From an uncultured archaeon (GTDB taxonomy: Archaea; Asgardarchaeota; Lokiarchaeia; Sigyniarchaeales; SOKP01), in contig CAYUTF010000023.1 in assembly GCA_964447495.1 (NCBI GenBank), forward strand, positions 1-39,163: a stretch of DNA of 39,163 nt, read 5' to 3'. The translations under genes and the position numbers were made by a program. This document shows, one piece after another, positions 6,324-37,021 of the stretch. Under the pieces are notes generated by a model that ran no database searches, was not told the DNA's origin, and saw only the letters and a program-made list of their open reading frames with translations. Every line of letters begins with the position of its first letter. Positions within the stretch are counted from its first letter, which is position 1.

Positions 6324-6527
6324 TTATCTCTTATATTTTGATCTTTTAGCTCCAATAGAATCGGGTTGTCCACCAAAATCTCCTTTGATAATTCTTTTTT
6401 TATATAATTTTCTAAATCTTTCCCTAGGAATTGCTTTTTTGGTCGAATTTACTCCAGTTGATTGTACTTTAGGAGTTTGTTGTCTAACCTTTCCTGCTTT
6501 AGTCATTGAACCATGTGAACCAGGAAT
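6324..6527 (-). CDS. rps30e: 30S ribosomal protein eS30 (S30e), probable ATT start
   Basis: Extending 7 codons upstream of the track's Met gives (M)PGSHGSMTKAGKVRQQTPK, the eS30 signature; SD GAGGTGA 6 nt before ATT at 6527. Confidence 0.9.
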   Translation of the reverse strand: MPGSHGSMTKAGKVRQQTPKVQSTGVNSTKKAIPRERFRKLYKKRIIKGDFGGQPDSIGAKRSKYKR

Positions 6528-6587
6528 GTTTTATCACCTCTTAGATTTTATTTTTAATTTGTGTTTTTAGTTTGAAATTTATCAATT

Positions 6588-6758
6588 TTATATATGAATT
6601 TTCTCTTGATGCTCTATTTCCTTATTAAATATATAAGAATCTTCTATTTTTTCAGATATTACTTTTTTATAATTACAAAGATTACATACAAGGAATTTAT
6701 TTTTAATATCCTTGGAAGGGAGCATAATACTTCCGCATTTTTCACAAAATTCAAGCAT
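6588..6758 (-). CDS. 56-aa zinc-ribbon protein resembling the N-terminal ribbon of TFS/RpoM (Rpb9/C11 family)
   Basis: Manual translation MLEFCEKCGSIMLPSKDIKNKFLVCNLCNYKKVISEKIEDSYIFNKEIEHQEKIHI; SD GAGGTGA 6 nt upstream. Confidence 0.8.
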   Translation of the reverse strand: MLEFCEKCGSIMLPSKDIKNKFLVCNLCNYKKVISEKIEDSYIFNKEIEHQEKIHI

Positions 6759-6773
6759 CTATAATCACCTCTC

Positions 6774-6929
6774 TTAAGAATTGATTTTTTCATTACTTAT
6801 TATCATTAATATATTCACATTTGTGAAAATTAAAGTCAACTGGCAACACCAAATCTTCATTACTGCTTGTTGCATAGAAGATGCTATTCTAATTATTTCA
6901 TTGTTTTGACTTTCAATTTCTTCATTCAT
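6774..6929 (-). CDS. Small hypothetical protein (51 aa, MNEEIESQ...KIWCCQL...)
   Basis: SD GGCGGTGA 4 nt before ATG at 6929; closely followed by the next gene's SD, operon-like. Confidence 0.55.
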   Translation of the reverse strand: MNEEIESQNNEIIRIASSMQQAVMKIWCCQLTLIFTNVNILMIISNEKINS

Positions 6930-7156
6930 ATAATCACCGCCAAGATTTAATAGCTTTTTTAGAAAGAAATTCGAGATCATAAGTTAGTTTTAATCTTTAA
7001 TTGGACGACAATTTCTTCAGTTTTATTGTTATAAATTATTTTTAAGGATAATACATTTCTCTGAGAAATTAGTTTTTTATAATTTTATTATAAAAAATAA
7101 TTCCGTTATATCAATATCAAGTACTTATACTAGCAAAATCATAAGAAAAGTATTCA

Positions 7157-7672
7157 TCAATTTTGTTGACTTACTACTAAAACATCACAAGGAGCTTCAT
7201 TAACTACTTCTTGGGTAACTGATCCTGAGATTATTCGTTCAAATGTAGAGTGTTCTCCCTTAGTACCTAATACTATAAGATCAAAATTCTCCTCCCCTAT
7301 AATTTCCTTAATATAATCTTCAGGTTTTTGATTATCTATCAAACGAATCTCGATTTCTATTTTTTCTTTATCGAATAAGTCCTTGGTTTTCTTAAGTATT
7401 TTTTCTCCATGATATTTGTATTCTTCCTGAATTTTTCGATAATCTACCATAGGAACTGTATATCTTCCTCCAAATCCACTAGGAACCATAATTGGCATAT
7501 ATTTAGGGAATTTATGATGATCTATTGAATGAAACGCAACTATTTTGGGATAATTTTGGTCACTTATGACACTTTCTTTACTATTTCCATTTTTCACTAA
7601 GTCTAATATTTTTTTAGCAGCTTTAAAAGCAATCTCTGAATCGTCCATTGCAATTAGAATTTTGTTGTAAAT
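7157..7672 (-). CDS. Universal stress protein (UspA family), probable ATT start
   Basis: (M)YNKILIAMDDS and DLIVLGTKG...GSVTQEVVNEAPCDVLVV motifs; the track's GTG lies inside the SD GGAGGTGA, and ATT follows 5 nt later. Confidence 0.9.
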   Translation of the reverse strand: MYNKILIAMDDSEIAFKAAKKILDLVKNGNSKESVISDQNYPKIVAFHSIDHHKFPKYMPIMVPSGFGGRYTVPMVDYRKIQEEYKYHGEKILKKTKDLFDKEKIEIEIRLIDNQKPEDYIKEIIGEENFDLIVLGTKGEHSTFERIISGSVTQEVVNEAPCDVLVVSQQN

Positions 7673-7873
7673 AGCTTTCACCTCCTAATTTTCGTCATTT
7701 TGACATCTATACTATCATATACAAATGAATTATTATATTTAAATATTAACATTTTATAATATTATAATAGTATAATATTTTCTTATTATAATAAACAGAT
7801 TTAAATATTTTAACTCTATTATTTAATTAGATTTTGATAAAAGAAAAGTTATAAAATAAGTTGGGGAGTTTTA

Positions 7874-8227
7874 ATGGAAAATCTAAATTCATTGATGATT
7901 AAATTCTTAAAAGTCTTAAGCGATCCAGTTAGATTAAATATAATAGAATATCTAAATGATAATCCAAGCTCTGCAAGTAAAATCCAACAGGATTTAAGCT
8001 TAAGTCAAAGTTATACCTCTCATCAATTAAAGAAACTTACAGAGGTAGATATTTTAGGATATGAGAGATTAGGTAAAAATAAGACTTTTAAAATAAAGAA
8101 TAAGGGAATATATAGATTACTTTCGATGATAAAATCATATATTTTATATTTAGAAAAAGAAAAATTTAAAAGAATTAAATCTATTGAAGAATCCCATTCG
8201 ATTGCAGATTTTGAGAATTTATTTTGA
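7874..8227 (+). CDS. ArsR/SmtB-family winged-helix transcriptional regulator
   Basis: LKVLSDPVRLNII...LSQSYTSHQLKKL HTH pattern; divergent from UspA; no Cys metal site. Confidence 0.85.
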   Translation: MENLNSLMIKFLKVLSDPVRLNIIEYLNDNPSSASKIQQDLSLSQSYTSHQLKKLTEVDILGYERLGKNKTFKIKNKGIYRLLSMIKSYILYLEKEKFKRIKSIEESHSIADFENLF

Positions 8228-8595
8228 TTGTATATAAACATTTTTCATTTTAACTAAGCCTATAGCAGAGTAGGTAGATTTCGAAAGAAATAATTAAAAT
8301 TGAAGATTTAAACGGGGAATACAGCAAATCTTAGAACATTTTAATAAAAGATAATTTTATTAATTATTATATATTAGATATCGTAGAAATTTTTATGGTT
8401 TTTCTTATTATCAATGAAGAATTTAATAAAATAACTTAGTGTGTTTTGGTGAAAGATGTTTTTGATTTTTTAAATAATATATTTTAGGATTCTACCTAAT
8501 TTGTAATTTTAATTCGAGACATTATATTAAATTCTTTTAACATTTATCAAGTATTTCAATTTATTAAAAAAGTAAAATATAGAGGTGATTAATGG

Positions 8596-9243
8596 TTGAA
8601 TGTTAAAAATAAAAGCGAAATTGAGCTATTAAATGATGTTAATAAACAGAGAAAAAAATCTAGTACAATTGATAGTCCGTCTACGATATTAGATTTCTAT
8701 GAAACATTAGCACTAACAATTAAATCAGTTAGTTTACAATCAAAGACAAAAATTAAAAGAATATTTATAATAGGTAAAAATTTAAAACAAATTTATAGTT
8801 GCATAAATAAAGCATTTCCAAACGCCCAATATGTTTTCTCCGATAGTTCAGAGATCTTTTTAAAAGAATTTATTAAAGAGATTGATCCAAATCCTTCAGT
8901 TAGAATTAAAGCATTAGATATTTTTAATGGTTCTTTGCTAACAGATTTTTTTTTAGAATTTGGAAAATTTGATCTAATAATCTTATCGCGAATATTCACC
9001 GAATATGAAATACATAATACCAAAATAAGAAATTCTATTCGATTTCTATACAAGAATTTTTTAAATTTAAATGGTATGTTTAGTATTTTGGAAAATGAGA
9101 AGGACGGAAGTATAGATCTCGTAAATCTTTTAAAAAGGGTTAAATCTTTTAAAAAAATAATCAAGTCATACCAAAAAAAAGGTATATCCCTTCAATTTGT
9201 AATTTATAAAAAAAAGAACCGGATGAAATTATTTGGTGATTAA
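8596..9243 (+). CDS. Hypothetical protein, possibly degenerate class I SAM-methyltransferase fold
   Basis: SD GAGGTGA 7 nt before TTG; FDLIILSRIF and LNLNGMFSILE resemble MTase motifs, but the Gly-rich motif I is missing. Confidence 0.5.
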   Translation: MNVKNKSEIELLNDVNKQRKKSSTIDSPSTILDFYETLALTIKSVSLQSKTKIKRIFIIGKNLKQIYSCINKAFPNAQYVFSDSSEIFLKEFIKEIDPNPSVRIKALDIFNGSLLTDFFLEFGKFDLIILSRIFTEYEIHNTKIRNSIRFLYKNFLNLNGMFSILENEKDGSIDLVNLLKRVKSFKKIIKSYQKKGISLQFVIYKKKNRMKLFGD

Positions 9244-9244
9244 T

Positions 9245-10789
9245 ATCGCAGGCATATTCGCAATTTTTAAGAAAAAAAGAATAGATGGTGTGTTATTAGA
9301 TGAAATTAAACATAATGCCACAAAAATAAAACATCGAGGGAGAGAAAGTCGATTTATATATGAGGACTTTCCTATAGAAGTAATTTTTTATCAAAAAAAA
9401 GAATTTAGAAGAAATGTACCTTTAAATTTCGCATTTGACAAAAATAGTAATAATTTAATAGTCATTGATGGTAAAATTTATAATCTAAAAGAAATGAATG
9501 CCAAATATTTGAGTACTCGTAAAGATATGGAGCAAACTCATAAGAATAACTTAGAAGGAATAATTGCGGGATATAAAAAATGTGGAATAGAAATACTAAA
9601 TCAATTATTCGGCTCTTTTAGTGGAATCTTTTATGATGGAACCGAATTAATTGGTTTTAAGGACCCTATAGGTGGAAAGCCATTATACTATTGTGAAAAT
9701 CAAGATTTCATAATTTATTCTTCTGAGTTAAAAGCGCTTTCTTCTCTTAGTCTAAAAATTACTCCTATTAAACCGGGAAGAGCGAAATTTTCTTCGGGTA
9801 AGACTAAAAGATATTACAATTTTCCAAGATTTAATGAAGAAATAACGTTAACAAAAAAAGCGATTAAACTATACGCTGTTGAATTGAAGGAATGCGTAAA
9901 ATTAGCTGTCGCAGATTCAATTAGAGAAGAAGAAAAGGTAAGCGCTCTATTAAGCGGGGGACTAGATTCCGCAATAGTTACTTATGTTGCTAAAGACTTT
10001 GTCGAAAAATTACATGTTTATACAGTTGGATTTAATGAGTCTAAAGATATATATTATGCAAAAAAGTTTGCTAAACTATATAATCTCGACCATTCTGTTG
10101 TTAAAGTAAATCTTAGTGATATGCTTGAATGTCTTCCGAATGTTATATTTGCACTTGAAACGTTTGATGCGGCATTGATAAGAAGTTCAATCCCAATGTT
10201 TTTAATATCAAAAAAAGTTAGAGAAGACCAAGGAGACTGTATTCTTCTAACAGGTGAGGGTGCGGATGAACTTTTCGGAGGATATTCATATCTTCTTAAT
10301 TTTAATTCAAAAGAGTCCTTAAACAACAAGATTTTAAACTTGTTGGAAAGAGAACATTCAACAGGATTGCAACGAGTCGATCGTATACCATACTTCTTTT
10401 CTATTGAAGCTAGGGCGCCTTTATTTGACAAAAGAATCGTTGAATTGTCATTTAATATCCCATCTGAATTAAAAATTTTTAAGAAAGAAGGAATTGGGTT
10501 TGCGAAAAAATGGATTCTGAGAAAAGCTTTTGAAGATGAAATTCCCCCTGAATTTATTTGGAGAAGAAAACAAAAATTTTCGAATGGGGTGGGTTCTGAA
10601 TTTATTTTAAGAGATTACATTAACACAATTATTTCTGATAGTGATTTTAATTATGAAAAACGAATTACACCACATTTTTCATTAAGATCGAAGGAAGAGT
10701 TATATTATTGGAGAATTTTTAAAAACAAATTTAAACCTACATTAGAAACTATATCAGAGCTAGGATTTACAAAGATATTTGAAATATAG
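9245..10789 (+). CDS. Asparagine synthetase B-like amide ligase lacking the N-terminal catalytic Cys; probable ATC start
   Basis: LSGGLDS, TGEGADELFGGY, EARAPLFD, KWILRKAF, DPIGGKPLYY, SSELKAL present; N-terminus (M)AGIF instead of MCGIF; SD GGTGA 5 nt before ATC 9245 (track start TTG 9233). Confidence 0.85.
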   Translation: MAGIFAIFKKKRIDGVLLDEIKHNATKIKHRGRESRFIYEDFPIEVIFYQKKEFRRNVPLNFAFDKNSNNLIVIDGKIYNLKEMNAKYLSTRKDMEQTHKNNLEGIIAGYKKCGIEILNQLFGSFSGIFYDGTELIGFKDPIGGKPLYYCENQDFIIYSSELKALSSLSLKITPIKPGRAKFSSGKTKRYYNFPRFNEEITLTKKAIKLYAVELKECVKLAVADSIREEEKVSALLSGGLDSAIVTYVAKDFVEKLHVYTVGFNESKDIYYAKKFAKLYNLDHSVVKVNLSDMLECLPNVIFALETFDAALIRSSIPMFLISKKVREDQGDCILLTGEGADELFGGYSYLLNFNSKESLNNKILNLLEREHSTGLQRVDRIPYFFSIEARAPLFDKRIVELSFNIPSELKIFKKEGIGFAKKWILRKAFEDEIPPEFIWRRKQKFSNGVGSEFILRDYINTIISDSDFNYEKRITPHFSLRSKEELYYWRIFKNKFKPTLETISELGFTKIFEI

Positions 10790-10845
10790 GGAGTCCAAAA
10801 AGGAAGATATTGAGAAATGAATGATGTTGGAAAATAGTACAAGAG

Positions 10846-11217
10846 ATGGAAATTAAATTACTTAGTGAGGTGAAAAGATTTATTAAAGAGGATAAAATTT
10901 GTCCAAAATGTAGTTTTCCAAAGGAATTATGTATGTGTGCTAATTTAGAGGCAGAAAATCAAAATATCAAGATTTTAATTGAAAAGCGTAGATGGGGGAA
11001 AATTGTAACCGTAGTCAAATTTAAGGGAGATTTTAATGTTAACTTGGATGATTTAAGCACAAAATCTAAGAAGAAATGTGCTTCTGGAGGTACTTATAGA
11101 AATAATACTATTGAAATACAAGGAGACCATCGGTTGAAATTAAAAAAATTGCTTATACAAGAAGGTTTCACAAAAGAAAATATCATAATTGAAGATTTAT
11201 TTAAGAAAAAGAGGTAA
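10846..11217 (+). CDS. sui1: Translation initiation factor aIF1 (SUI1/eIF1 family); start ATG 10846 or ATT 10882
   Basis: ICPKCSFPKELCMC zinc knuckle, KRRWGKIVTVV, CASGGT, IEIQGDHR. Confidence 0.92.
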   Translation: MEIKLLSEVKRFIKEDKICPKCSFPKELCMCANLEAENQNIKILIEKRRWGKIVTVVKFKGDFNVNLDDLSTKSKKKCASGGTYRNNTIEIQGDHRLKLKKLLIQEGFTKENIIIEDLFKKKR

Positions 11218-11374
11218 ATTGAGGAATCAAATACTTCAAAAGATGTTGATAAGTTTCTGATAACAAAACCAGTGCTGATTCCTGTTCCAAATCCACAACC
11301 ATCATAATGAATTGTTAGAGAGTCAAGACGCATTTAGACTTCTTAAAATTAAAAAAATACATTAGAGAATTAAT

Positions 11375-11662
11375 CTAATTTTTTAATTCTTCTAATTCTT
11401 TAGATATTTGATTATGCAACTTTTCTCTCTCAATTTGATTATTAATTATAGGCTTTTTATAAAGCTCAATATCACTAAAGCTTTCATAAGAGAATTTTTG
11501 CTTTTTATTTTTTCTTTGGGTCGTCAAATTATTACTTTCAATTGATTTTGAATTTAAATTCGTAAGTGTTCTAATATCTTTTTTTAATAAGTTATACTCT
11601 TTTTGATTAGCTGATACTTGTTGTTTGATAAAAAAATCTTTTAATTTTTTAATAATTTTCAT
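11375..11662 (-). CDS. Hypothetical basic/coiled-coil protein
   Basis: 95-aa ORF with GGAG 6 nt upstream; no recognised motif. Confidence 0.55.
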   Translation of the reverse strand: MKIIKKLKDFFIKQQVSANQKEYNLLKKDIRTLTNLNSKSIESNNLTTQRKNKKQKFSYESFSDIELYKKPIINNQIEREKLHNQISKELEELKN

Positions 11663-11735
11663 TCAGATCTCCTAATTATCATCTTTTATTTTGTTTTTAT
11701 CGTATTGAAGTTCATTATAAGGCATCTCAGGAAAT

Positions 11736-11903
11736 TTAGCTCTCAAGGGCAAATAAAATGTTATCTTGGATAATAAAGTATTCATTATCATCTCGAATGA
11801 CAACACTGTGGAAGTATTCAGCTAAACCAAGAAATCCACGGATTATTTTTTCATTTCCTTCATATAAAAATTGAACTTTTGAAATCGTTGGGTTTGACCT
11901 AAT
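11736..11903 (-). CDS. 55-aa hypothetical protein, ATT start
   Basis: Manual translation (M)RSNPTISKVQFLYEGNEKIIRGFLGLAEYFHSVVIRDDNEYFIIQDNILFALES; globular-protein-like composition; in-frame TGA two codons upstream. Confidence 0.5.
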   Translation of the reverse strand: MRSNPTISKVQFLYEGNEKIIRGFLGLAEYFHSVVIRDDNEYFIIQDNILFALES

Positions 11904-12037
11904 TTTTCACTTTATTATGAACATTCTCATCTATTAAGGGTATTTTCAATTCAGATACTAATTCATATACATGTTTATGGAAAATATCTTTATTTTTCAT
12001 AATATTATCACTTTTTTTCATTTAATTGTCGTGTTAA

Positions 12038-12223
12038 GATAATCCAAGATTAATAACGTTTATTTCTCTTAGAGTCTTTACCTTTAATCTCTATTTATTC
12101 TTTAGATTAAGAATTTCTGAATAAATCGTTAAAAAGAACATAATTTCAAGGGGAATCTTCAATCAAGATTCTTCCTCTAGATTAAAAAATTAAGTTCTAG
12201 GAGAATGTAGTTAGAGGATTATC
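12038..12223. ncRNA. Candidate structured non-coding element (~186 nt)
   Basis: Closing stem GATAATCC/GGATTATC enclosing four further stems; minus-strand TATA-like box ~20 nt upstream; family not recognised. Confidence 0.3.
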
Positions 12224-12362
12224 AAATAAATTTCATATCTATATATAACAAATAAGCAGTAATATTTAATTTTAATGATTGAAAACAAATAGATTTTTAG
12301 TAGAGATATTCTTCTTATTATTAACTTAGTCCATACTGAAACATCAATGTCAATTTTCTGAA

Positions 12363-13274
12363 TTAAAAAGTAATTTGTGGTTGGGGTGGAAGTTCTCTCA
12401 AATGTTGAGAACGGGATATAAGCTCTCGAACGTGATTAATTTGTTCATCTTCTACATTATTCTCCGAAGAAATTTTTAGATTATCCCAACTCTTTTCAAT
12501 GCCCCAAAGTATTTTATCTAATGTTTTATATTCAATTCCTAAAGCGATCTCATCCACAATACCCGGGATTAAATCTGGTGATGGTGCTTTATCAATTATC
12601 TTTTGGCTTACACCTACATATTTAGCTAACTGCCAGACTTGGGTTTTATATAGGGGAAGAATCGGTTCAATATCAGCTACATTATCTCCCCATTTGACTA
12701 CAAATCCCGTGAGAGATTCACTTTTATTTGTAGTCCCCAATACCATTCTATTTTCCAGATCTGCGAAATAATATAATGTAATTAATCTCATCCGATGTTT
12801 AACTCGAGTATACGCATTTCCCGCATCTATCAACTTTTTAGAATTACCAAGGTTTATAGTCCCCAGTAATCCTGCTCTAAATGGCATTTCTCCTATTTCT
12901 TTCTTTTGACTTTCATGTTGCTTTCTTACCACAGTCTCTTTAAAGCGACGTAATCCTAAAATTTGGAGCGGAACTAACCGATATATACCAAATTTCTTTA
13001 AAAAAGGAGTTAGTTTTATCTCTCTATATTCAATCCCTAATCGAGCGATTTCTAATAATGCATCGCTTTTACTATCTGGGCTTGAGTCTCTTTCAGGGAG
13101 GAGTAATGCTAATACTTTTTCTGAACCTAAAGCCCTAACTGCTAAAGATGCCACTAAAGATGAATCTACTCCTCCACTCATCCCTAAAATTACTCCATCC
13201 CTCTGAAATTCTATCATTTTTTCTCTTATAAATTTTTCAATCAGGGAAGAGACTATTGGTAGATTTATTTCCAT
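12363..13274 (-). CDS. nadE: NH3-dependent NAD+ synthetase
   Basis: GMSGGVDS, R-RMRLITLY, GTTNKSE...GFVVKWGD, DIEPI-PLYKTQV, KAPSPDL; no glutaminase domain. Confidence 0.93.
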   Translation of the reverse strand: MEINLPIVSSLIEKFIREKMIEFQRDGVILGMSGGVDSSLVASLAVRALGSEKVLALLLPERDSSPDSKSDALLEIARLGIEYREIKLTPFLKKFGIYRLVPLQILGLRRFKETVVRKQHESQKKEIGEMPFRAGLLGTINLGNSKKLIDAGNAYTRVKHRMRLITLYYFADLENRMVLGTTNKSESLTGFVVKWGDNVADIEPILPLYKTQVWQLAKYVGVSQKIIDKAPSPDLIPGIVDEIALGIEYKTLDKILWGIEKSWDNLKISSENNVEDEQINHVRELISRSQHLRELPPQPQITF

Positions 13275-13864: not shown

Positions 13865-14968
13865 TTAATGAATGTATATTTGTTCTTTGGTTCCCAAATT
13901 TGTTAATTCTTTAATGGCTATTCTTCTTTTAATATATTCTTCTAATTCTAACTTAGCTATTGTTCTTCCTCCTCTTTTAAAATCTGTTCCACATAATATT
14001 GAGGATAAATTTATTACCGAATCAATAACAGGTGTCTTAATACCTAAAAATTCAGCTAACGATGAAATTGGCACTAATCCCGTTGGAATATCCTCAGTAA
14101 AATATCTAGTTATTAACTTTTTAGGTGCAATTATGTCTTTGTACGCGATGATTGTTTGAATTGCATCATATATGCATTTTTCTTTCACTCCATAAGATTT
14201 ATTTGCCCATTTACAAAAATCATACTGTTTTAGGCCGAGTATTTTCATGATTTGGTTTATTTCCATTTGTAATCTCTCAAGAACTTCACATGTTCTTTTT
14301 GTTGCACCTTCGGAATAAAATCTAAATTCATTGCCAATATCCATCATTCCAGAGTTTAAAATCGAAAGAGTAGGATGAAGCAACATTCCTATATTTTTTA
14401 AAGTCATTTCAAGATAATCTTCAGAAGGTTCTAGCTCTGGAAAGACTTCTTTTAAAGTGTCATAAATGAAAAAAGTATATTTTTCTGGATAAGCCGAAAA
14501 CTCAACACAATCTTTAATTTTTAAAATTTTGACTTTATTTTTTTTTAATTGTCTTGAAGTAAAAATCAGTGTTTGCGTTTCTGCAATAAAAACAGGAACA
14601 TATCCCATTTGATCTTTTATTGTCTGCCAAAATTCGATTGCTCCAAATGTTCTTCCAGGATTAAGAAGTATTATTTGATCTTTTGTCAAAATTGGAGCGA
14701 TTTTTTGAGCTATTGATTTATGAGCTGATGCAGGAGTCACTACTAATATCACATCGGCCTTCTTAACAGCACGATCTAATCTCTGGGTTACAATATTTAA
14801 TGGAAAAAAGCCTTTTAATTCTCCCTTGGATTTAATTCCTGATTTCTTTTTTATATCAGCGATTCTTGAATAAGATCTGTTAAACAAATTCACAGGTTTT
14901 TCTTTTGATGACAGATATGCAGCAAAAGCACGTCCCCCACTTCCCGCTCCTATGATACAGAACTTCAT
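13865..14968 (-). CDS. Opine dehydrogenase family protein, copy 2
   Basis: Same motifs and same length (367 aa) as copy 1; SD GAGGTGA 7 nt upstream. Confidence 0.88.
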   Translation of the reverse strand: MKFCIIGAGSGGRAFAAYLSSKEKPVNLFNRSYSRIADIKKKSGIKSKGELKGFFPLNIVTQRLDRAVKKADVILVVTPASAHKSIAQKIAPILTKDQIILLNPGRTFGAIEFWQTIKDQMGYVPVFIAETQTLIFTSRQLKKNKVKILKIKDCVEFSAYPEKYTFFIYDTLKEVFPELEPSEDYLEMTLKNIGMLLHPTLSILNSGMMDIGNEFRFYSEGATKRTCEVLERLQMEINQIMKILGLKQYDFCKWANKSYGVKEKCIYDAIQTIIAYKDIIAPKKLITRYFTEDIPTGLVPISSLAEFLGIKTPVIDSVINLSSILCGTDFKRGGRTIAKLELEEYIKRRIAIKELTNLGTKEQIYIH

Positions 14969-16707
14969 TTAATGCTCACCTCTTTAAGAAATTTGTTTTC
15001 CATATAATTCGATTTAAATAAATTTAGTTCACTGTATATATTATCAATATCTTTTATCCGTGCAATTTCTTCATATACTTTATCTCGGATTGGATCCCAT
15101 GAATAACAGCTTCCTTTTACAATTCTGGTTTTTATTTTTCCCTTAGTAAACTTATTGTTTTTTAAATGAGGGGCATCAAAGATTCCATATTCTACAAGCT
15201 TATATAAAACATCGGGATTAGTGTAGGGATCTTGCGTTCCTTCTGAATCTATAGCTAAATTAGGAATTATTCTTATTATTTCTTGAGCTTGTTTAATTAG
15301 TTGATCCCTTCTCTTCACTATACTTTTATTTATATATTTAAGGTTGCTAAAGAGAGCTTGGTTAATGACTTGATGCACAATTTTACAGCTTTCAATGATA
15401 TCCTTAGGATTTGCTGCGTGATCGGCCTCAGAATAACTTACTACATGAATTATGTCTGGTTTTAAAGCTAATTGGACCATTGTTGCTGCTGCGAGTTGTC
15501 CTTTAGCTTTATCTAAATCTAAAGGAAAACTTGCTATGCCAGTCCTTACTTGTTTAATGACTGAGAAGTTTTTATCTATCAGTGTATTAAGTAATTCATT
15601 TTTAGCTAGCATCTTAGCTAAATCCATATCAAGTGTAAGTGCTGGCGGAGTATTAAACATGTACTGTGCAACAAAATTCTTTACACCTAATTTCTTTGCG
15701 ATGATACCGCAAAGATACATATCTGCGACAGTGATAGCATCAGAAGCGTCTCTTAAACTCCAATGGTGAGGATCGTTAATCTCAACGGGAATATTTTTAG
15801 TAACATGCCATTTTATTGCTTCTAAATGTTGTAATATTGATTGTTTTAAAGGTAAAGGACCTCTACTATCCATTTGGTTAAACCAAAATATAGGTATTGC
15901 TGCCCACGCATTCTTTATTGTTTCTTGAAATAATTTTCCCATTTTAATAAAGTCTCGCGTTCCCGCATAGATTCGGAGCAAAGGAAAATTACCTCTCATT
16001 CTCGCTTTATTCAAACTTTTGAAATCATCACGTACTCGTAGTGGGACTCCTCCAGCACCATCTAAATCCTTATTTTGAGCTTCAGGGTGAAAATAATGTG
16101 ATTGAGTATTCTGATCAGGAGCGATTGAAACTACATCCAAAATTTTGGCTTCTGCAATTTCTTTTATTCCATCAATGGTTTCATTTAGATTTGGTAATCC
16201 AAAATGAGCTCTTAAGAGGGGATATGGTTTTTTCCATTCAATTCGTGAAATTAAATCCATTGGAGGATGAAAAATCTTTTTAGAACTTTCACTCCTATTT
16301 CTTAAAACTGAAAGTATTTCATATTTAGGTTCTCCACCAATAAAATATTGATCAAATCTTTCAAATTTCCTAGCCTCTTTTACAACTTCAGGTGTACCAG
16401 CGAAAAAAAGTTTGTTAGGTCTTTCATATAAATTATGATATTTGTTAAAAAATTCCTCAAGTAAGGGCACAACTGTTTTCGGAGTTAATCTATAACTAAG
16501 TCCCACTATATTTGGATTAAGTTCTTTGATTTTATTGATTACATCAGAAATAGGTGTTGCTGGCCCTAAAAAATGATTTTTATACCCAAGTTGTTTAGCA
16601 ATTTGTATAAAATTATAAGTGCCTGCAACATGAACACATTGACCGATACATGCTGTTAAAATTAACTTTTTCTTATGGATTTTTAATTCCTTTTGTACTT
16701 TTCCCAT
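14965..16707 (-). CDS. Cobalamin-binding mutase-like protein, copy 2
   Basis: CVHVAG/LGPA/VGLSY B12 domain; colinear with copy 1; SD GAGGTGA 7 nt upstream. Confidence 0.75.
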   Translation of the reverse strand: MGKVQKELKIHKKKLILTACIGQCVHVAGTYNFIQIAKQLGYKNHFLGPATPISDVINKIKELNPNIVGLSYRLTPKTVVPLLEEFFNKYHNLYERPNKLFFAGTPEVVKEARKFERFDQYFIGGEPKYEILSVLRNRSESSKKIFHPPMDLISRIEWKKPYPLLRAHFGLPNLNETIDGIKEIAEAKILDVVSIAPDQNTQSHYFHPEAQNKDLDGAGGVPLRVRDDFKSLNKARMRGNFPLLRIYAGTRDFIKMGKLFQETIKNAWAAIPIFWFNQMDSRGPLPLKQSILQHLEAIKWHVTKNIPVEINDPHHWSLRDASDAITVADMYLCGIIAKKLGVKNFVAQYMFNTPPALTLDMDLAKMLAKNELLNTLIDKNFSVIKQVRTGIASFPLDLDKAKGQLAAATMVQLALKPDIIHVVSYSEADHAANPKDIIESCKIVHQVINQALFSNLKYINKSIVKRRDQLIKQAQEIIRIIPNLAIDSEGTQDPYTNPDVLYKLVEYGIFDAPHLKNNKFTKGKIKTRIVKGSCYSWDPIRDKVYEEIARIKDIDNIYSELNLFKSNYMENKFLKEVSIK

Positions 16708-26291: not shown

Positions 26292-27770
26292 TTGAATATA
26301 GAAAAGTTTGAGTTAATCTATAAAGATAATCGAAGCAAAATTCAAGATAAATTAAAAATAGCAAAACGGTTAGAAGAAATTTTAGGAGTTAATAACTATT
26401 CATCGAAGGAGATCGACTTAATGGCTTATTCAAGAGATGCTACAATGCTAGCGATTAATTGGACAATAGAAGGTAAACTAGCTGCATTACCCGACTTTAT
26501 CACATGGCCTGATAATTGCGCTCAAATTTCTAATATTTTAAAACTTGCTAATGAAGAACATATTCCAGTTATCCCTTACGCTGAAGGATCATCTGTTGTA
26601 GGGGGTTCTATTCCGATTAATGGCGGAATAATTATTGATATGAAAAAGTTCAATAAAATTCTGAATATTAACGACGAGAACTTAAGTGTCACTGTCCAAG
26701 CAGGGATAAATGGTATGAATTTAGAACGATATTTAAATGCAAAGGGTTATACTTCAGGACATATCCCCCAATCTCTATATATATCTTCATTAGGAGGGTG
26801 GATATCCCATAAAGCTGCTGGTCAATTCTCCACCAAATATGGTAAGATTGAGGATATTGTTCTTGGTTTCGAAGTGATATTACCAAACGGCGAACTACTT
26901 GATTTTAAAGCAATTCCAAGAAACTCAACAGGACCACAATTTGACAAATTATTTATTGGAGGAGAAGGTACATTAGGAATTATTACCCAAGCAACCTTAA
27001 AAATATGGCCTAAACCAGAGAAGAGAAGTTCCATTTCTTATTCCTTTCCTACAATCGAAGATTCTTTTTCTGCTACCAGAAGCATATTACGAGAGTATAT
27101 TTTTCCTGCGGTTATTAGAATTTATGATGAATTTGAAACAGATAGACATTTTGAGCATGTTAAGAATGCAAAAGGGAGAGTTATGGTTGTATTCGTATGC
27201 GAAGGAAATGGAAAATTAGTTGATTTAGAAGAAGAAATTACTAGGAAGAAATGTGAAGAAAATAATGGTATGGATTGTGGAGAACAACCTGTAGAGCATT
27301 GGTTTGAAACAAGGTTTAGAGTTACTGAAACGTCCTCAATGCCACCATATAAAATAATATTTGATACTATTGAAGTTGCTTCATTATGGGATAAAGCGGC
27401 AAATATATATCACACCGTCTTAAAATATATGAATGACCTAAAAGGAGTTCTCATGATTACTGCACATATCTCCCACTTTTACCCTAACGGTGTAGGAATC
27501 TACTTTACATGGGGAGGAATACCACCTAAAGGAACTTCCGAATTAAAATTTTATCAGGAAGGATGGGATACAGTTATAAAAGCTGTTGTTGATGCCGGAG
27601 GTTCTATTGCACATCATCATGGAATTGGAATTAATCGATCTCATTGGATGGAAAAAGAATGGGGTACTTCTATGAAATATTTATCAGAAATAAAGAACCT
27701 TTTGGACCCTAATAACATTTTGAATCCGGGAAAAGTTTATACTAACGTATGGAAAAGAGGTGAAGAATAA
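26292..27770 (+). CDS. FAD-linked oxidoreductase (VAO/GlcD fold), alkyl-DHAP-synthase-like subfamily
   Basis: GHIPQS...SLGGW...AGQFSTKYGKIED, GGEGTLGIIT, HISHFY, IAHHHGIG, DPNNILNPGK. Confidence 0.85.
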   Translation: MNIEKFELIYKDNRSKIQDKLKIAKRLEEILGVNNYSSKEIDLMAYSRDATMLAINWTIEGKLAALPDFITWPDNCAQISNILKLANEEHIPVIPYAEGSSVVGGSIPINGGIIIDMKKFNKILNINDENLSVTVQAGINGMNLERYLNAKGYTSGHIPQSLYISSLGGWISHKAAGQFSTKYGKIEDIVLGFEVILPNGELLDFKAIPRNSTGPQFDKLFIGGEGTLGIITQATLKIWPKPEKRSSISYSFPTIEDSFSATRSILREYIFPAVIRIYDEFETDRHFEHVKNAKGRVMVVFVCEGNGKLVDLEEEITRKKCEENNGMDCGEQPVEHWFETRFRVTETSSMPPYKIIFDTIEVASLWDKAANIYHTVLKYMNDLKGVLMITAHISHFYPNGVGIYFTWGGIPPKGTSELKFYQEGWDTVIKAVVDAGGSIAHHHGIGINRSHWMEKEWGTSMKYLSEIKNLLDPNNILNPGKVYTNVWKRGEE

Positions 27771-31628: not shown

Positions 31629-31997
31629 GTGAGCATTATTATCGAAGATGAGAATACAACTCTTTCTTTTTGCAAAGAAGAAGTAAAGCAATTTGTTAAT
31701 AATCGTGGTTGGACGAAGTACCATACTCCCAAAAACCTAATTCAAGCACTTCATATTGAAGTTGCAGAATTATCAGAAATTTTTTTATTTAAGGATTATG
31801 AAATCAATCACATACGTGCGAATAAAGGGCTATTAGAAAATATATCAGATGAGTTAGCAGATATTTTCATTTATCTCATAAGTTTAGTAAATGTTTTTGG
31901 AATAGATCTAACAGAAGCATTTCTAAATAAAATGAGAAAAAATGAAAATAAATATTCAATTGAAGAGTTTAATAATGGTTTTTATTATAAAAAGTAG
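31629..31997 (+). CDS. MazG-like all-alpha NTP pyrophosphohydrolase
   Basis: RGWTKYHTPKNL...EVAEL...DELADI; start near 31629-31641 rather than the track's 31560. Confidence 0.85.
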   Translation: MSIIIEDENTTLSFCKEEVKQFVNNRGWTKYHTPKNLIQALHIEVAELSEIFLFKDYEINHIRANKGLLENISDELADIFIYLISLVNVFGIDLTEAFLNKMRKNENKYSIEEFNNGFYYKK

Positions 31998-32089: not shown

Positions 32090-33067
32090 ATGGTCAAGAA
32101 CAATATTGATGTAATAATTAAAGAACAGTTAGATAAAACACTAAATGAAACCAGTTTTGCAACCCTAGGAACATTATACAAAGGAAAAGTACGGGATAAT
32201 TATATAAAGAAGGACATTCGCATTATAATTGCCACAGACCGTTTATCTGCGTTTGATCGTGTTATAACTACAATACCTTTTAAGGGCGAATTGTTAAATC
32301 GTGTTTCTTCTTTTTGGTTTGAGAAAACAAAAGATATTGTAAAAAATCATATTATTGAGATACCTGATCCAAATGTAGCAATAGTCCATCAGTGTGATAT
32401 GATTCCGATTGAAATGATTGTTCGAGCATATATCACAGGTTCAGCGTGGCGTAATTACGAAAAAGAAGAGACTACTTCGGGAATAATATTACCCTCGGGA
32501 TTACGAAAAAATCAAAAATTAGATGACATCTTATTGACGCCTTCGACTAAAGCAGAATCGGGACATGATATCTATATCTCTCGAGAACAGATTCTTAAGC
32601 AGAAGATGGTGAATAAAGAGATATATGAAAAAATGGAACAATCAGCGCTAAAATTATTTAAATACGGGCAAAATTATTGCTATAAAAATGGGTTAATATT
32701 AGTGGATACAAAATATGAGTTTGGAATGAAGGATGGGGAATTGATGGTTGTCGATGAGATTCATACGCAAGATTCGTCTCGATTTTGGATTCTTGACTCT
32801 TATGAGAATAGATTTGAAAAGAATGAGAACCCTGAAATTTTAGATAAAGAAATTTTTCGAGGTTGGCTCATGGATACTTATCCAGACATTTTCCCCAACA
32901 TTAAACCTAATCAAGAAATCCCACCAATTAGCACTGATATCAAGATAGAATTAGCAAAACGATATATGAAGAGTTATGAAAAAATTACAGGGTTGGAATT
33001 TGAAGCGAATGCTACTAACGTTAAGCAGAGAATATATGAAAATTTAAAGAAAGCAAATTATTTATAG
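32090..33067 (+). CDS. purC: SAICAR synthetase
   Basis: GKVRD, TDRLSAFD, TPSTK, LVDTKYEFG, DEIHT-DSSRFW. Confidence 0.95.
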   Translation: MVKNNIDVIIKEQLDKTLNETSFATLGTLYKGKVRDNYIKKDIRIIIATDRLSAFDRVITTIPFKGELLNRVSSFWFEKTKDIVKNHIIEIPDPNVAIVHQCDMIPIEMIVRAYITGSAWRNYEKEETTSGIILPSGLRKNQKLDDILLTPSTKAESGHDIYISREQILKQKMVNKEIYEKMEQSALKLFKYGQNYCYKNGLILVDTKYEFGMKDGELMVVDEIHTQDSSRFWILDSYENRFEKNENPEILDKEIFRGWLMDTYPDIFPNIKPNQEIPPISTDIKIELAKRYMKSYEKITGLEFEANATNVKQRIYENLKKANYL

Positions 33068-33105
33068 AGTTTAAAAATTTAAGAAAAAATATATAAAAGA
33101 ACAGA

Positions 33106-33324
33106 TTGTATTTTTTTATTATGTTTAATTTCATTCTTATAGTTGGAGCATATGTATTGTTTTTGTTCAGTTTTATATTATTAGTAAAGGACATCTTGAC
33201 AAAAAATAAGCTCCAAGATCACAATCTAGAAGCAAAGTTAACTAAATCAAGTGGATATAGTTTCGGCTTTTCATTATTAGCTTTAATTCTTATGGTTTTT
33301 GTAAGCTTTAGCTATGTTTATTGA
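33106..33324 (+). CDS. Small two-TM hypothetical membrane protein
   Basis: Two hydrophobic segments separated by a polar loop; alternative ATG at 33121. Confidence 0.55.
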   Translation: MYFFIMFNFILIVGAYVLFLFSFILLVKDILTKNKLQDHNLEAKLTKSSGYSFGFSLLALILMVFVSFSYVY

Positions 33325-33456
33325 ATAAAAATTATTAGAACCTTCAATAAAATAAGTAGTTTCAATAAAACTATTTTTTGTCGTATTTCATGAATCAAAA
33401 TTATTTATTAATTAATAAGCATTAATAAAATTATAACAAACTTTTTTCTTTTAAAG

Positions 33457-33726
33457 ATGGATCAATTAGAATTTATAATTGAAGTTTCACTCGAGAATAA
33501 ACCTGCTGCTCGTGATCCGGTCGCTGAAACCATAAAAAGAGATTTAATAGCTAAAAAAGGATATAATATGATTTCAAATGTACGATCAGGTCAATATTTA
33601 AGAATAAATATAATAGCTGAGAATGAGGATAATGCTAAAGAAATTGTGACTAAGATGTGTAATGATCTTAGAATCTTTAATCCAGTTACTCAGAATTTAA
33701 CCGTTCTTAATGTGAAAAAATTATGA
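33457..33726 (+). CDS. purS: FGAM synthase subunit PurS
   Basis: KP..RDP..ETI, NVRSG, FNPV; precedes purQ/purL. Confidence 0.92.
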   Translation: MDQLEFIIEVSLENKPAARDPVAETIKRDLIAKKGYNMISNVRSGQYLRINIIAENEDNAKEIVTKMCNDLRIFNPVTQNLTVLNVKKL

Positions 33727-34433
33727 ATGCAAAAATCGCGGTTCTCATGTTTCCAGGCAGCAATTGTGATTTAGATACAATCCATGTCCTTAAAAATGTG
33801 ATTCATGTAGACACTGACTTAGTATGGCATAATCATTTTAAAGAAAAAGATTATGATGGGGTCATTTTACCAGGAGGATTTGCTTTTGGTGACTATTTAA
33901 GAGCAGGAATTATTGCAGCGCATAGTCCTGCCATCGAGGAAGCTAAAATTATGTTGAAAGATGGGAGACCAGTTATTGGAATTTGCAATGGATTTCAGAT
34001 ATTAACGGAAGCACAATTTCTTCCCGGAGCGTTATTACAAAATGATTCTCTCAAATTTGTATGTAAATGGGTAAATCTTGTGGTGGAAAATAATAAAACA
34101 GCATTTTCAAATAAAATGAATATAGGGGATGTTATTAATATCCCAATTGCTCATGGAGAAGGACGATTCTTTACGGATAATCTGAGAGAATTAGAAGAAA
34201 ATAATCAAATCGTCTTTAAGTATTCCGATGACGAAGGAAATCCGACTATGGAAGCAAATCCAAATGGATCTTTAGCAAATATTGCAGGTATATGTAATTT
34301 AGAGCAAAATTGTGTTGGATTAATGCCCCACCCAGAACGTGCTTCTGAAGAAATTTTAAGTCCAAAAAAAACAATACATGGTACATTATTTTTCAAATCA
34401 ATGATAGAATTTATTATGCAGAGGTTACATTAA
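33723..34433 (+). CDS. purQ: FGAM synthase glutaminase subunit PurQ
   Basis: FPGSNC, PGGF.FGDYLR, GICNGFQ, HGEG, NPNGS, MPHPER. Confidence 0.97.
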   Translation: MNAKIAVLMFPGSNCDLDTIHVLKNVIHVDTDLVWHNHFKEKDYDGVILPGGFAFGDYLRAGIIAAHSPAIEEAKIMLKDGRPVIGICNGFQILTEAQFLPGALLQNDSLKFVCKWVNLVVENNKTAFSNKMNIGDVINIPIAHGEGRFFTDNLRELEENNQIVFKYSDDEGNPTMEANPNGSLANIAGICNLEQNCVGLMPHPERASEEILSPKKTIHGTLFFKSMIEFIMQRLH

Positions 34434-36679
34434 TGACGAAAGTAAATCTGGATGGGGAAGAAGTAAATATAGAAATGACCAAGAGCGAGTTTAATAAAGT
34501 TAAGGAATTGCTAAATAGAGAGCCAACAGTTACAGAGCTTGGTGCTTTTGATGTTATGTGGAGTGAGCATTGCTCATATAAATCATCTCGCCCTAAATTG
34601 AAGCTATTTGAGGATGCTGAAGCAAATTATGATTATGTTCTCGCAGGACCGGGACAAGATGCCGGAGTTATAGATATAGGTGATGGATATGCTTTAGCGT
34701 TTAGAATTGAATCCCATAATCATCCCTCCGCAATTGAGCCTTATCATGGTGCTGCTACGGGAATTGGAGGCATTATTAGAGATATTTTATGTATGGGAGT
34801 CCGTCCCATTGCATTATTAGATCCATTGAGATTTGGGAATTTGAAAAATAATCCTCATTCACAATGGCTATTCAAATATGTAGTGAAAGGTATTGCTGAT
34901 TATGGAAACTGTACCGGTATACCGACTATTGGTGGCGAAGTAGAGTTTGATGATAGCTTTGAAAGCAATTGTTTAGTCAATGTAGCTTGTATCGGCTTAG
35001 GTACAATTGAAGATTTTAAACATGCGCCAAGTAAAGCTTATAATCCCGGAGATTATATAATCCTAATGGGAGGATCTACTGGTCGAGATGGAATTCATGG
35101 GGTAACATTTGCATCTCGTACTCTAACGGAGATGTCTGAAGCCGACAGACCGGCTGTCCAAATTGGTGACCCTTTTACTAAGAAAATGATTATTGAAGCT
35201 ACATTAGAAGCTGTAAAGTCCGGTTATGTGAGAGGATTAAAAGATCTTGGTGGAGGCGGCTTAACATGCGCAACAAGTGAGTTAACTGGGGATGGAAACA
35301 CAGGAGCAAAAATAGATTTAAAACAAGTTTTTACTAGAGAACCAGGAATGAATTCGTATGAGCTCATGCTTTCTGAATCTCAAGAGAGAATGGCTTTCAT
35401 TGTAAAACCAGAGGGTTTAGAAACGGTCCTAGGGATATTTAGGAAGTATGAAATGAATTTTGCTGTAATTGGGAGAACTGATGATTCAAAAGTATTGAAC
35501 GTTTATTATGGGGATAAATTGGTAGTAAGTCTTCCTTCAAAAGCACTTTCTGAATCTCCTATTTTTAAAAGACAAGAAAGGCGTCCTTCTTATTTAGATA
35601 CCTTGATAAATCAAAAAACACCTACACCGACTTTAGGACTGGATGAGATAATATATAAATTAATAGCATCAGAAAATATATGCAGTAAGGAATGGGTTTA
35701 CCGTCAGTATGATCATGAGGTTGGAGTTCGGTCTGTAGTGAAATGTGGAAAAGGAGACTCGGGTGTCTTGAGAATTATTGGGACAAATAAGTTTATTGCC
35801 GCAAGTGTAGGAGTTAATTCAAAACATTGCTATTTGGATCCCTATGAAGGAGCGAAGGGGGGTCTGGTCGAAGTTTGTGGTAATGTAATAGCAAATGGTG
35901 CAAAAGCTATGGCAATGGTAAATTGCTGCAATTTTGGAAATCCTGAAATTCCAGAATCTTTTTGGTATTTCTCTAGATCGGTTGAGGGAATGAACGATTT
36001 TTGTAGAAGTCTTAAAATACCTATAGTTGGAGGAAATGTTTCTTTTTATAATGAAGATGAGGTAAAGAAGTCTGCCATAAAAGCAACACCAATGATTATG
36101 ATAGTAGGGCTCATTGAGGGCCAAGAGAATATAATTACCCTCCCTTTCAAGAAATCTGGAAATGATATTTTTCTAATCGGAGAGACTAAAAAAGAATTAG
36201 GGGGGTCTGAATATCATTCAGTTATATATAATATTGAAGGAGGACAACCACCTAAGGTTCATGAATCACAAATTAGAGCCTTATGGGATTTTCTATTTGA
36301 ATTGTATAAATTAAAGTTAATTAGAGCAAATCATGATGTAAATAAAGGTGGTTTTATCATAACTATTGCAGAAATGTGCTTTAAAAATAGTATGGGCGCC
36401 TATATTGATTTGAATCATATTAATAGAGGGGATCTAAGAGATGATGAATTTTTATTCAGTGAATCTGTTGGGAGATTTATAATTGAAACAAATCCTAAAG
36501 ATTATAATACAGTTACTCAAATTGCTGAAAAATACGGAGTTTCTGCTCAGAAGATTGGTACTATTGAGAAAAAACCTTTCATTCAGATAGCGGGATTAAC
36601 TACCAAAGAGATAAAACTCAATGTTGATAAAATGAAGCAACTTTATGATTCAACAATTCCAAATTTAATGGAAATCTAA
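34433..36679 (+). CDS. purL: FGAM synthase subunit PurL
   Basis: WSEHCSYKS, ESHNHPS, TGRDGIHG, SESQERM, QYDHEV, GGNVSFYN, FSES. Confidence 0.97.
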   Translation: MTKVNLDGEEVNIEMTKSEFNKVKELLNREPTVTELGAFDVMWSEHCSYKSSRPKLKLFEDAEANYDYVLAGPGQDAGVIDIGDGYALAFRIESHNHPSAIEPYHGAATGIGGIIRDILCMGVRPIALLDPLRFGNLKNNPHSQWLFKYVVKGIADYGNCTGIPTIGGEVEFDDSFESNCLVNVACIGLGTIEDFKHAPSKAYNPGDYIILMGGSTGRDGIHGVTFASRTLTEMSEADRPAVQIGDPFTKKMIIEATLEAVKSGYVRGLKDLGGGGLTCATSELTGDGNTGAKIDLKQVFTREPGMNSYELMLSESQERMAFIVKPEGLETVLGIFRKYEMNFAVIGRTDDSKVLNVYYGDKLVVSLPSKALSESPIFKRQERRPSYLDTLINQKTPTPTLGLDEIIYKLIASENICSKEWVYRQYDHEVGVRSVVKCGKGDSGVLRIIGTNKFIAASVGVNSKHCYLDPYEGAKGGLVEVCGNVIANGAKAMAMVNCCNFGNPEIPESFWYFSRSVEGMNDFCRSLKIPIVGGNVSFYNEDEVKKSAIKATPMIMIVGLIEGQENIITLPFKKSGNDIFLIGETKKELGGSEYHSVIYNIEGGQPPKVHESQIRALWDFLFELYKLKLIRANHDVNKGGFIITIAEMCFKNSMGAYIDLNHINRGDLRDDEFLFSESVGRFIIETNPKDYNTVTQIAEKYGVSAQKIGTIEKKPFIQIAGLTTKEIKLNVDKMKQLYDSTIPNLMEI

Positions 36680-36814
36680 GTTTATTTCTAATTATTCATA
36701 TGTCCATAAGTTATGTGTTCGAATATCACGTATTAACTAAAAGATAATCATAAATTTGAAAAATCATAAATTTTTTACCTTATTAAGTATTTATAAAAAT
36801 TAGGTGACTTAATT

Positions 36815-37021
36815 ATTAGGGCTCGAGCATGCATTAGATGTAAGGAGTATGTAGTTATTCACCCAAATAATCCTATAAATCAAAATATAATTGCAAATTT
36901 TGAACAACATCATAGACAACATACACTTATAACCGTTAACTTAGATGAAGTTAAAGATAGTTATCAAATCTTTAAAGGTAATGGTGTTGAAAAGAGTTCT
37001 GATGATTTTAATGAAACCTAA
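36815..37021 (+). CDS. 68-aa CxxC...HxxH putative zinc-binding protein (paralog B), ATT start
   Basis: Manual translation (M)RARACIRCKEYVVIHPNNPINQNIIANFEQHHRQHTLITVNLDEVKDSYQIFKGNGVEKSSDDFNET; SD AGGTGA 7 nt upstream; no in-frame ATG/GTG/TTG. Confidence 0.8.
   Translation: MRARACIRCKEYVVIHPNNPINQNIIANFEQHHRQHTLITVNLDEVKDSYQIFKGNGVEKSSDDFNET

Follow-up and report, generated by a model that had tools for sequence, protein, structure and literature searches.

The window analysed here is a 39,163-nt stretch of DNA, contig CAYUTF010000023.1 of a metagenome-assembled genome (MAG) from an uncultured Lokiarchaeon (assembly GCA_964447495.1). Judging from their sequences, dozens of ordinary genes appear to have ATT, ATA or ATC as their start codon, both in this archaeon and in close relatives. 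We consider it likely, at a probability of roughly 0.85, that these near-cognate start codons are presented by a Shine-Dalgarno (SD) sequence and read by the ordinary initiator tRNA (Met-tRNAi). The same reading would include a feedback on the gene for initiation factor aIF1, which itself would start with ATT.

The host genome comprises 3.81 Mb with 31% GC and is 98% complete. With a tetranucleotide distance that ranks 15th among 34 large contigs, the window is typical of its bin. The named aIF1 records most similar to those found here come from Promethearchaeota/Promethearchaeia MAGs, in keeping with a Lokiarchaeon. We searched for orthologs in 40 relatives, of which 24 belong to the same genus and 16 to the same order. 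Below, ATG, GTG and TTG are called canonical start codons.

Candidate near-cognate start codons in the window

Five genes in the window have an SD motif 5 to 8 nt before an in-frame ATT or ATC, as a preliminary description of this DNA had noticed. The motifs are 6- to 9-nt matches to the SD template, and the same motif occurs at the same spacing before canonical window starts that have a strong SD (ATG 6758, TTG 8596, ATG 14968, ATG 16707 and ATG 27771). The preliminary description had also placed the ATT or ATC of the eS30, Usp and AsnB-like genes where other family members have their first methionine, and ortholog alignments do put canonical starts at that codon. Among orthologs, the aligned start codon is exchanged between ATG and ATT or ATA in the eS30, Usp and zinc-finger genes, and between ATG or TTG and ATC in the AsnB-like gene.

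The gene for ribosomal protein eS30 (6324..6527, minus strand, 67 amino acids plus stop) is predicted to start at ATT 6527-6525 on the basis of an upstream stop codon, Pfam and orthologs. Its SD (GAGGTGA, 6534..6540, minus strand) is part of an 8-nt match to the template and lies 6 nt upstream of the ATT. An in-frame TAA occupies 6533-6531, so that just AAC and the ATT stand between this stop codon and the conserved sequence P-G-S-H-G-S. The alignment to the Pfam family Ribosomal_S30 runs from residue 5, which is upstream of the next ATG (6506), and a start at that ATG would drop those positions. In the 29 orthologous loci displayed, the codon before P-G-S-H-G-S is ATG in 22 and ATT in 7. The seven ATT loci, including that of the window, all belong to the host's genus, have no canonical codon upstream and vary synonymously in the codons that follow. 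A second eS30 copy in the host genome also has an ATT start.

Zinc-finger gene B (36815..37021, plus strand) encodes a small zinc-finger protein of 68 amino acids that belongs to no Pfam family. Its reading frame contains no ATG, GTG or TTG. The putative start, ATT 36815-36817, lies 7 nt downstream of an SD (AGGTGA, 36802..36807, plus strand) and aligns with the ATG of ATG-R-A-R-A-C-I-K-C-K in most relatives. Elsewhere, the aligned codon is ATT (L090, L093, L101 and L110), ATA (L086, L089 and L094) or GTT (L102). GTT also occurs at SD spacing in a Usp gene (L133), again where orthologs have ATG, ATT or ATA, and from these alignments may be a further near-cognate start.

The Usp-family gene (7157..7672, minus strand) has a candidate start at ATT 7672-7670, assigned by ortholog codon alignment. 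Its SD (AGGAGGTGA, 7678..7686, minus strand) is a 9-nt match located 5 nt upstream. We read the printed codons of 25 distinct related genes directly before the conserved Y-K/N-K-I-L, and counted ATT in 14, ATG in 4, ATA and TTG in 2 each, and CTG, GTT and GTG in 1 each. The typical layout among these genes is GGTGA NNN NNN ATT.

The AsnB-like gene (9245..10789, plus strand), which matches Asn_synthase and GATase_7 in Pfam, is the one gene of the five with ATC. This codon (9245-9247) lies 5 nt downstream of the SD core GGTGA (9235..9239, plus strand) and aligns with the ATG of most orthologs, before A/T-G-I-F. In two orthologs (L141 and L147) the aligned codon is TTG, 6 nt after the SD. The fifth gene encodes aIF1 and is discussed in a later section.

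Enrichment across the genome and its relatives

Upstream of first ATGs in the host genome, the enriched SD 5-mers (GAGGT, AGGAG, AGGTG, GGAGG, GGTGA and GTGAT) tile a single template. We used this template on 4,170 stop-to-stop open reading frames (ORFs) of at least 100 codons and tallied the in-frame codons that lie no more than 12 codons from the upstream stop, dropping those with an ATG, GTG or TTG within 3 codons. A hit was an SD match of at least 6 nt at an aligned spacing of 5-7, and 54 other sense codons served as the reference (34/24632). The canonical codons ATG (62/1996, odds ratio 23.2, p=6.1e-46), TTG (16/587, 20.3, p=1.4e-14) and GTG (5/239, 15.5, p=3.5e-5) were enriched. So were ATT (18/1752, odds ratio 7.5, p=2.8e-9) and ATA (11/1426, 5.6, p=2.3e-5). 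ATC had no hits (0/554, odds ratio 0, p=1). CTG scored 3/104 (odds ratio 21.5, p=5.1e-4), but is not counted, because a complementary control template also gave 3/104.

Neither control template enriched the two main near-cognate codons: the reversed template gave 3/1752 for ATT and 0/1426 for ATA, the complementary one 2/1752 and 3/1426, and the odds ratios were about 0-1.3. When hits are counted for each spacing, ATT peaks at spacing 6 (12 hits versus 0-3 at other spacings), as ATG does, and ATA peaks at spacings 6-7. By contrast, AAA, AAT, TTA, TAT and GAA have 0-1 hits in these counts. We used counts per spacing instead of an SD window of 4-9 nt, which mixed in second codons and hid the signal. 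A tally of GGTGA, six nucleotides and a codon irrespective of ORF context was swamped by coding periodicity and was dropped.

At a threshold of at least 4 nt, the background-subtracted excess of SD matches is 319 for ATG, 75 for TTG, 32 for GTG, 33 for ATT, 28 for ATA, 8 for ATC and 7 for CTG. From these excesses, near-cognate codons account for about 15% of SD-led starts in the filtered set. SDs of 6 nt or more make up 47% of the excess for ATT and 32% of that for ATA, compared to 19% for ATG, so near-cognate starts have stronger SDs. The preliminary description had proposed routine initiation at AUU and AUC. The genome-wide tally bears out AUU, but AUC is rare in this genome, and the second main codon is instead ATA, which that description had missed.

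In 80 ORFs, an SD-led ATT, ATA, ATC or CTG precedes the first canonical codon by 8 codons or more. We scanned 20 of these against Pfam, chosen by us for recognisable N-termini and thus not a random sample. In 15 of the 20, the domain starts upstream of the first canonical codon. Counting residues from the proposed start, and with the first canonical codon in brackets, these domains are Response_reg at 4 (+19) and, in a second and marginal case, at 8 (+9), Flavodoxin at 4 (+98), Usp at 2 (+47), Ras at 9 (+17) in one gene and at 8 (+22) in another, ApbA at 3 (+13), NAPRTase_N at 7 (+15), HMA at 10 (+13), LMWPc at 6 (+18), ABC_tran at 19 (+45), AFOR_N at 4 (+9), NiFeSe_Hases at 37 (+93), HSP20 at 20 (+30) and YdjM at 25 (+35). 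The Flavodoxin and HMA genes have CTG as the proposed start. Affected genes encode a hydrogenase, P-type ATPases, small GTPases, response regulators, an ABC ATPase, an NAPRTase and others. In addition, putative near-cognate starts occur in uS4, in both host copies of aIF1 and of eS30, and in the majority of the Usp paralogs.

Usual gene callers consider ATG, GTG and TTG alone as start codons. The suspicion that they mis-set starts in this lineage is supported by the public collection, where eS30 is given as 60 amino acids from ATG 6506, missing the conserved N-terminus, and the window aIF1 as 123 amino acids from ATG 10846.

A second species of the same genus (G007, 800 kb sampled) also shows hits at ATT (3/353, p=0.02), ATA (3/235, p=0.007) and ATC (2/88, p=0.008), compared to 6/4784 for other codons; the canonical counts are 9 for ATG, 2 for TTG and 4 for GTG. 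One of its ATC hits is the uS4 gene, whose protein begins M/I-G-D-P-R-R and whose first canonical codon is at +43. The host's uS4 gene has the same layout, with AAGGTGA, a 5-nt spacer and ATC. Thus, ATC starts are supported by ortholog alignment for the AsnB-like and uS4 genes, but not by the statistics of the host genome.

In a closed genome of another family (G032, 800 kb sampled), lowering the threshold to at least 5 nt gives ATT 4/302 (not significant) and ATA 5/185 (p=0.036), and an SD with ATC precedes the conserved N-terminus of RNA polymerase A', where the first canonical codon is at +26. Extensions at the 5′ end of at least 20 codons without a canonical codon occur in 7.4% of long ORFs in the host and in 9.7% in G032, so their length alone does not separate the genomes. 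A rough test of codon-position composition suggests that the long extensions are partly coding in G007 and in the host; for G032, it suggests that they are not. The host's genus seems to show the trait most strongly, and the rest of the order more thinly.

The start of aIF1 and a possible feedback

The aIF1 gene of the window (SUI1 family; 10882..11217, plus strand) has its putative start at ATT 10882-10884, based on ortholog codon alignment, with an SD (GAGGTGA, 10867..10873, plus strand) and an 8-nt spacer. It is a second paralog; the main copy of the host is on another contig (C27) and also has an ATT start. Orthologs of the window type keep GAGGTGA and the 8-nt spacer, followed by ATT (L052) or ATA (L197). 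An ATG upstream of the window gene (10846) is absent from both.

All 15 main-type genus orthologs fetched have TGA, three codons and ATT-AAA-GAC, continuing to ATT-TGT-CC, and none of the 15 has a canonical codon before the zinc knuckle. The leader (AAAGGTTGTGAA..ATT) is invariant, with a conserved TATA-like box upstream of it, whereas the third positions of codons are variable.

In a phylum-wide sample of 80 genomes, from which 30 aIF1 loci were read, the start is ATT in three genera of the host's family (g1, g12 and g13) and ATA in two other families (f17 and f11) and in genera g5 and g10 of a third (f2). Several other Asgard families have GTG or TTG, and five have ATG (f5, f10, f15, f22 and f4). 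We also compiled 80 named aIF1 loci, most of which come from outside the Asgard phylum. The canonical codon nearest to the zinc knuckle is ATG in 67 of the 80, within four codons of it and mostly exactly four before it, TTG in 4 and GTG in 5. The 4 loci that lack a canonical codon are three Promethearchaeota with ATT and one Aenigmatarchaeote with an SD and ATA.

Outside Asgard (L381 and L349), besides this one Aenigmatarchaeota gene, a single aIF1 gene of Thermoplasmatota has an SD and CTG where relatives have ATG. In Methanomethylicia, the aIF1 gene has an SD and TTG.

Other initiation factors of the host, namely both copies of aIF1A and aIF2-beta, start with ATG. The start of eS30 alternates between ATG and ATT within the genus, whereas the ATT of main-type aIF1 is unchanged in every member of the host's family that was fetched. 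This constancy in the alignments hints at selection for a weak start. A conserved weak start on a fidelity factor's own gene is a condition of autoregulation of the infC or eIF1 type, and main-type aIF1 appears to have such a start. By analogy, the conserved ATT suggests an infC/eIF1-like feedback. According to passages of two papers on Sulfolobus, aIF1 discriminates against AUU and destabilises AUU complexes in vitro (PMC4705826, PMC6237735), and one of these passages describes the AUU start of the bacterial IF3 gene as autoregulatory (PMC4705826).

We therefore propose the following mechanism as a working model. 30S complexes that carry Met-tRNAi, with its CAU anticodon, would initiate at AUU and AUA, less often at AUC and perhaps at CUG. 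A strong duplex between SD and anti-SD would hold the GGUGA core about 6 nt before the near-cognate codon and would offset the third-position mismatch of that codon. Such starts would be heritable, would interchange with ATG over evolution and would make up roughly 15% of SD-led starts in the host. At low aIF1 levels, more aIF1 would be made, along with more product of all other genes started by AUH (AUU, AUA or AUC); at high levels, there would be less of both. The sequences themselves show the layout of the sites, the enrichment at SD spacing, the exchange of codons among orthologs and the shortening of domains that canonical starts alone would entail. From these patterns we infer the insertion of methionine at AUH codons, the tuning by the aIF1 level and the feedback loop.

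Near-cognate starts in aIF1, eS30, uS4 and Usp genes, together with the conserved ATT of aIF1, would fit a link to initiation stringency, although the gene list itself does not establish the regulon at which the preliminary description had hinted. It is possible, but rather doubtful, that the aIF1 level governs how much product is made from roughly 15% of SD-led genes, those that would start at AUU, AUA or AUC, including the genes for eS30, uS4, Usp stress proteins, small GTPases, response regulators and energy enzymes. In that case, aIF1 would be a third instance of the infC/eIF1 logic, either independent or ancestral and predating eukaryogenesis.

The initiator tRNA gene of the host (C27:28673-28820, minus strand) is interrupted by two introns, of which one occupies the canonical 37/38 site and the other lies in the T-arm. 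Because of these introns it was missed by aragorn, by the Rfam tRNA model and by a regular expression, and we found it by similarity to relatives. Its exons, identical to those of relatives, specify a standard CAU anticodon and an anticodon stem with three G:C pairs. Nothing in the gene points to a changed anticodon arm or accounts for relaxed start selection. The same contig carries aIF2-beta (27298-27627) and, at about 4910-5248, the main aIF1 copy.

Three genes are present in the bin as two diverged copies, namely aIF1 (C23, which is the window, and C27; 57% identity), eS30 (C23 and C55; 72%) and aIF1A (C81 and C185). These could be true paralogs, or could come from a co-binned sister lineage. 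A contig of another genome (G005, contig C60) is syntenic with the window in its aIF1, Usp, AsnB-like, zinc-finger and MazG-like genes, and that genome also carries both aIF1 types.

Alternative readings and known systems

Several points weigh against near-cognate initiation as proposed here. At three of the five window sites, the start is ambiguous from this genome alone, given an in-frame GTG 7681 inside the SD of the Usp gene, TTG 9233 and GTG 9236 inside that of the AsnB-like gene, and both ATG 10846 and GTG 10870 (inside the SD) for aIF1. ATC is without statistical support in the host, as even with a 5-nt SD the count is 6/554 (p=0.3), and the CTG signal is not robust. Five of the 20 genes scanned against Pfam are uninformative, with domains that start downstream of the first canonical codon. 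In G032, an SD of at least 6 nt gives ATT 1/302 and ATA 1/185, neither of them significant. The host genome is a MAG in 223 contigs with 3.75% contamination, and the relatives are not independent of each other, so that counts across them overstate the support. Finally, the feedback loop is argued from conservation and analogy.

If only canonical codons were used, translation would begin either at an in-frame GTG or TTG in the SD or at an ATG, be it one upstream or the first one downstream, and ATT, ATA and ATC would encode isoleucine or remain untranslated. The in-frame codons just named favour this explanation, as does the high frequency of ATT (about 5.5% of codons), and it proved true for a MazG-like gene (see below). 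We nevertheless regard it as improbable. In eS30, zinc-finger gene B and the 15 aIF1 orthologs, a stop codon and no canonical codon lie upstream of the conserved residues, so no canonical start could encode the conserved N-terminus. The same holds for 15 of the 20 Pfam-scanned genes, whose domains would be cut short and would lose P-loops, a catalytic Cys motif or a Walker A motif. Moreover, a GTG inside an SD would have no SD of its own, and the enrichment is particular to ATT and ATA at spacing 6, with none for AAA, AAT, TTA or TAT.

The near-cognate codons could also be artefacts, in which ATG was misread during sequencing or assembly, or marks of decay, in which pseudogenes have mutated start codons. 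In favour of this, the host genome is a MAG, and a gene near the sites in question (11736-12021) is frameshifted. However, the same codons occur in orthologs of many separately assembled species. Logan contigs of runs from three other samples (X2-X4), which are contigs and not raw reads, have identical letters at the covered sites, and the sole listed differences in the window are at 7366 and 9740. Affected genes such as eS30, uS4 and aIF1 are essential, their frames are intact and their variation is synonymous only. We consider this explanation by far the least probable of those discussed.

Alternatively, the starts are real but read by something other than an ordinary initiator tRNA, for example one with a modified anticodon, a second initiator-like tRNA (with UAU or GAU) or an mRNA in which the third base of the codon is edited to G. 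The third-position variants ATT and ATA do outweigh first-position variants in the excess, a tRNA-Ile(UAU) gene is present in an array of 16 tRNA genes on contig C80, and DNA does not reveal tRNA modifications. On the other hand, the sole initiator-type tRNA that we found has a standard CAU anticodon arm. In bacteria, the ordinary initiator tRNA reads the third-position near-cognates AUU, AUA and AUC. Reports of start-codon editing in archaeal mRNA are not known to us, although no search was aimed at them. A passage on infC likewise supports reading of a near-cognate AUU by the ordinary initiator tRNA (PMC4705826). A different reader is thus about as unlikely as the exclusive use of canonical codons, and we favour SD-led initiation by ordinary Met-tRNAi.

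A close parallel to the proposed role of aIF1 is bacterial infC, at least as that paper's passage on it describes the gene: IF3 is a fidelity factor translated from its own conserved AUU, and aIF1, at an analogous site, rejects AUU in vitro (PMC4705826). The other initiation-factor genes that we checked here (two for aIF1A and one for aIF2-beta) use ATG. However, the aIF1 fold is unrelated to that of IF3, and the likeness would lie in regulation by analogy. AUU starts in E. coli are limited to a couple of genes, whereas AUU or AUA starts occur here in dozens. Eukaryotic eIF1, which is autoregulated by way of a poor initiation context, is the ortholog of aIF1, and a weak start on the gene of such a factor would give the same logic of negative feedback. 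In the archaeal case, the weakness would reside in the codon together with the SD and not in a Kozak context, and scanning plays no part. Only some Asgard lineages have this arrangement; aIF1 genes of other phyla mostly have ATG.

The GUG and UUG starts of archaea and bacteria are similar in being SD-assisted, in using the initiator tRNA and in having the same spacing optimum in the host, but their mismatch is in the first position and not in the third. Animal mitochondria use AUA, AUU and AUC starts at high frequency, which is the same set of third-position near-cognates. Their genetic code and their tRNA-Met modification are different and they have no SDs, while the starts described here would follow the standard code and depend on an SD.

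A single "rare ATT start codon" was proposed for AtubA in a MAG of Kariarchaeaceae, which belong to the Heimdall group (PMC13394414). There too, an Asgard gene had been annotated too short, and an upstream ATT at a plausible distance from a ribosome-binding site restores the conserved N-terminus (PMC13394414). That was one rare case, whereas the starts reported here are genome-wide, statistically supported and followed across species. A literature search, which did not cover annotation tables in supplements, returned the AtubA case as the one related statement and no account of routine AUU or AUA initiation in Asgard archaea or of a non-AUG start of aIF1. Near-cognate starts and feedback on fidelity factors are already known, but neither the use of such starts throughout an archaeal lineage nor a conserved AUU on aIF1 seems to have been described.

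SD sequences are stated to be rare in Lokiarchaea, in passages of two papers (PMC7531240, PMC12993045). These statements rest on annotated starts (PMC7531240, PMC12993045) and may be biased by starts that were mis-set. More generally, gene callers limited to ATG, GTG and TTG would truncate or lose genes in a much-studied group. The loss of catalytic N-termini such as P-loops and Cys motifs would mislead functional and structural work, which, going by the passage on AtubA, has happened once with a tubulin (PMC13394414). If about 15% of SD-led genes do have near-cognate starts, initiation would be unusually relaxed for a free-living prokaryote, in a lineage with initiation factors of the eukaryotic type. 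The conserved AUU of aIF1 would make it directly testable whether eIF1-style fidelity feedback predates eukaryotes.

Rejected sites and further features of the genome

The preliminary description also listed two weaker sites with AAGTGA, at 11903 and at 31635-31641. Both sequences are present, but neither is a near-cognate start. At the second site, the ATG of the MazG-like orthologs aligns not with the ATT or ATC but with an in-frame GTG at 31629, in 10 of the 11 genus orthologs shown, which gives this gene a canonical start and the coordinates 31629..31997 (plus strand).

ATT 11903 is internal to a frameshifted conserved gene of about 100 amino acids (11736..12021, minus strand), with a break in a run of A at about 11899-11909. 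Its N-terminal half is encoded at 12021-11899 and its C-terminal half, a frame of 55 codons, at 11906-11736. The two halves are in different frames and jointly match one open frame of 100 amino acids in a related genome (L141). The family is present in 35 of 41 related genomes. The break could be an assembly indel, reflect a pseudogene or correspond to programmed frameshifting.

Among host contigs of at least 30 kb, C7 is the strongest tetranucleotide outlier (0.0485 versus a median of 0.0063). This contig, from which some odd candidate ORFs derive, probably represents contamination. The tRNA array on contig C80 (positions 10-13035) has at least 16 tRNA genes on one strand, and the GC content of that contig is 35%, compared to the genome mean of 31%. 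Besides the tRNA-Ile(UAU), it includes a tRNA-Met(CAU) that is unlike the archaeal initiator. A mobile element, a virus or foreign DNA could account for it.

Within the window, a block of two genes is duplicated (3136-6005 and 13865-16707, minus strand). The proteins of one gene have N-termini of the form MKFCIIGAG.GGRAFAAYLS, and the partner proteins have 580-589 amino acids. Strong SDs with ATG starts are found in both copies of the block.

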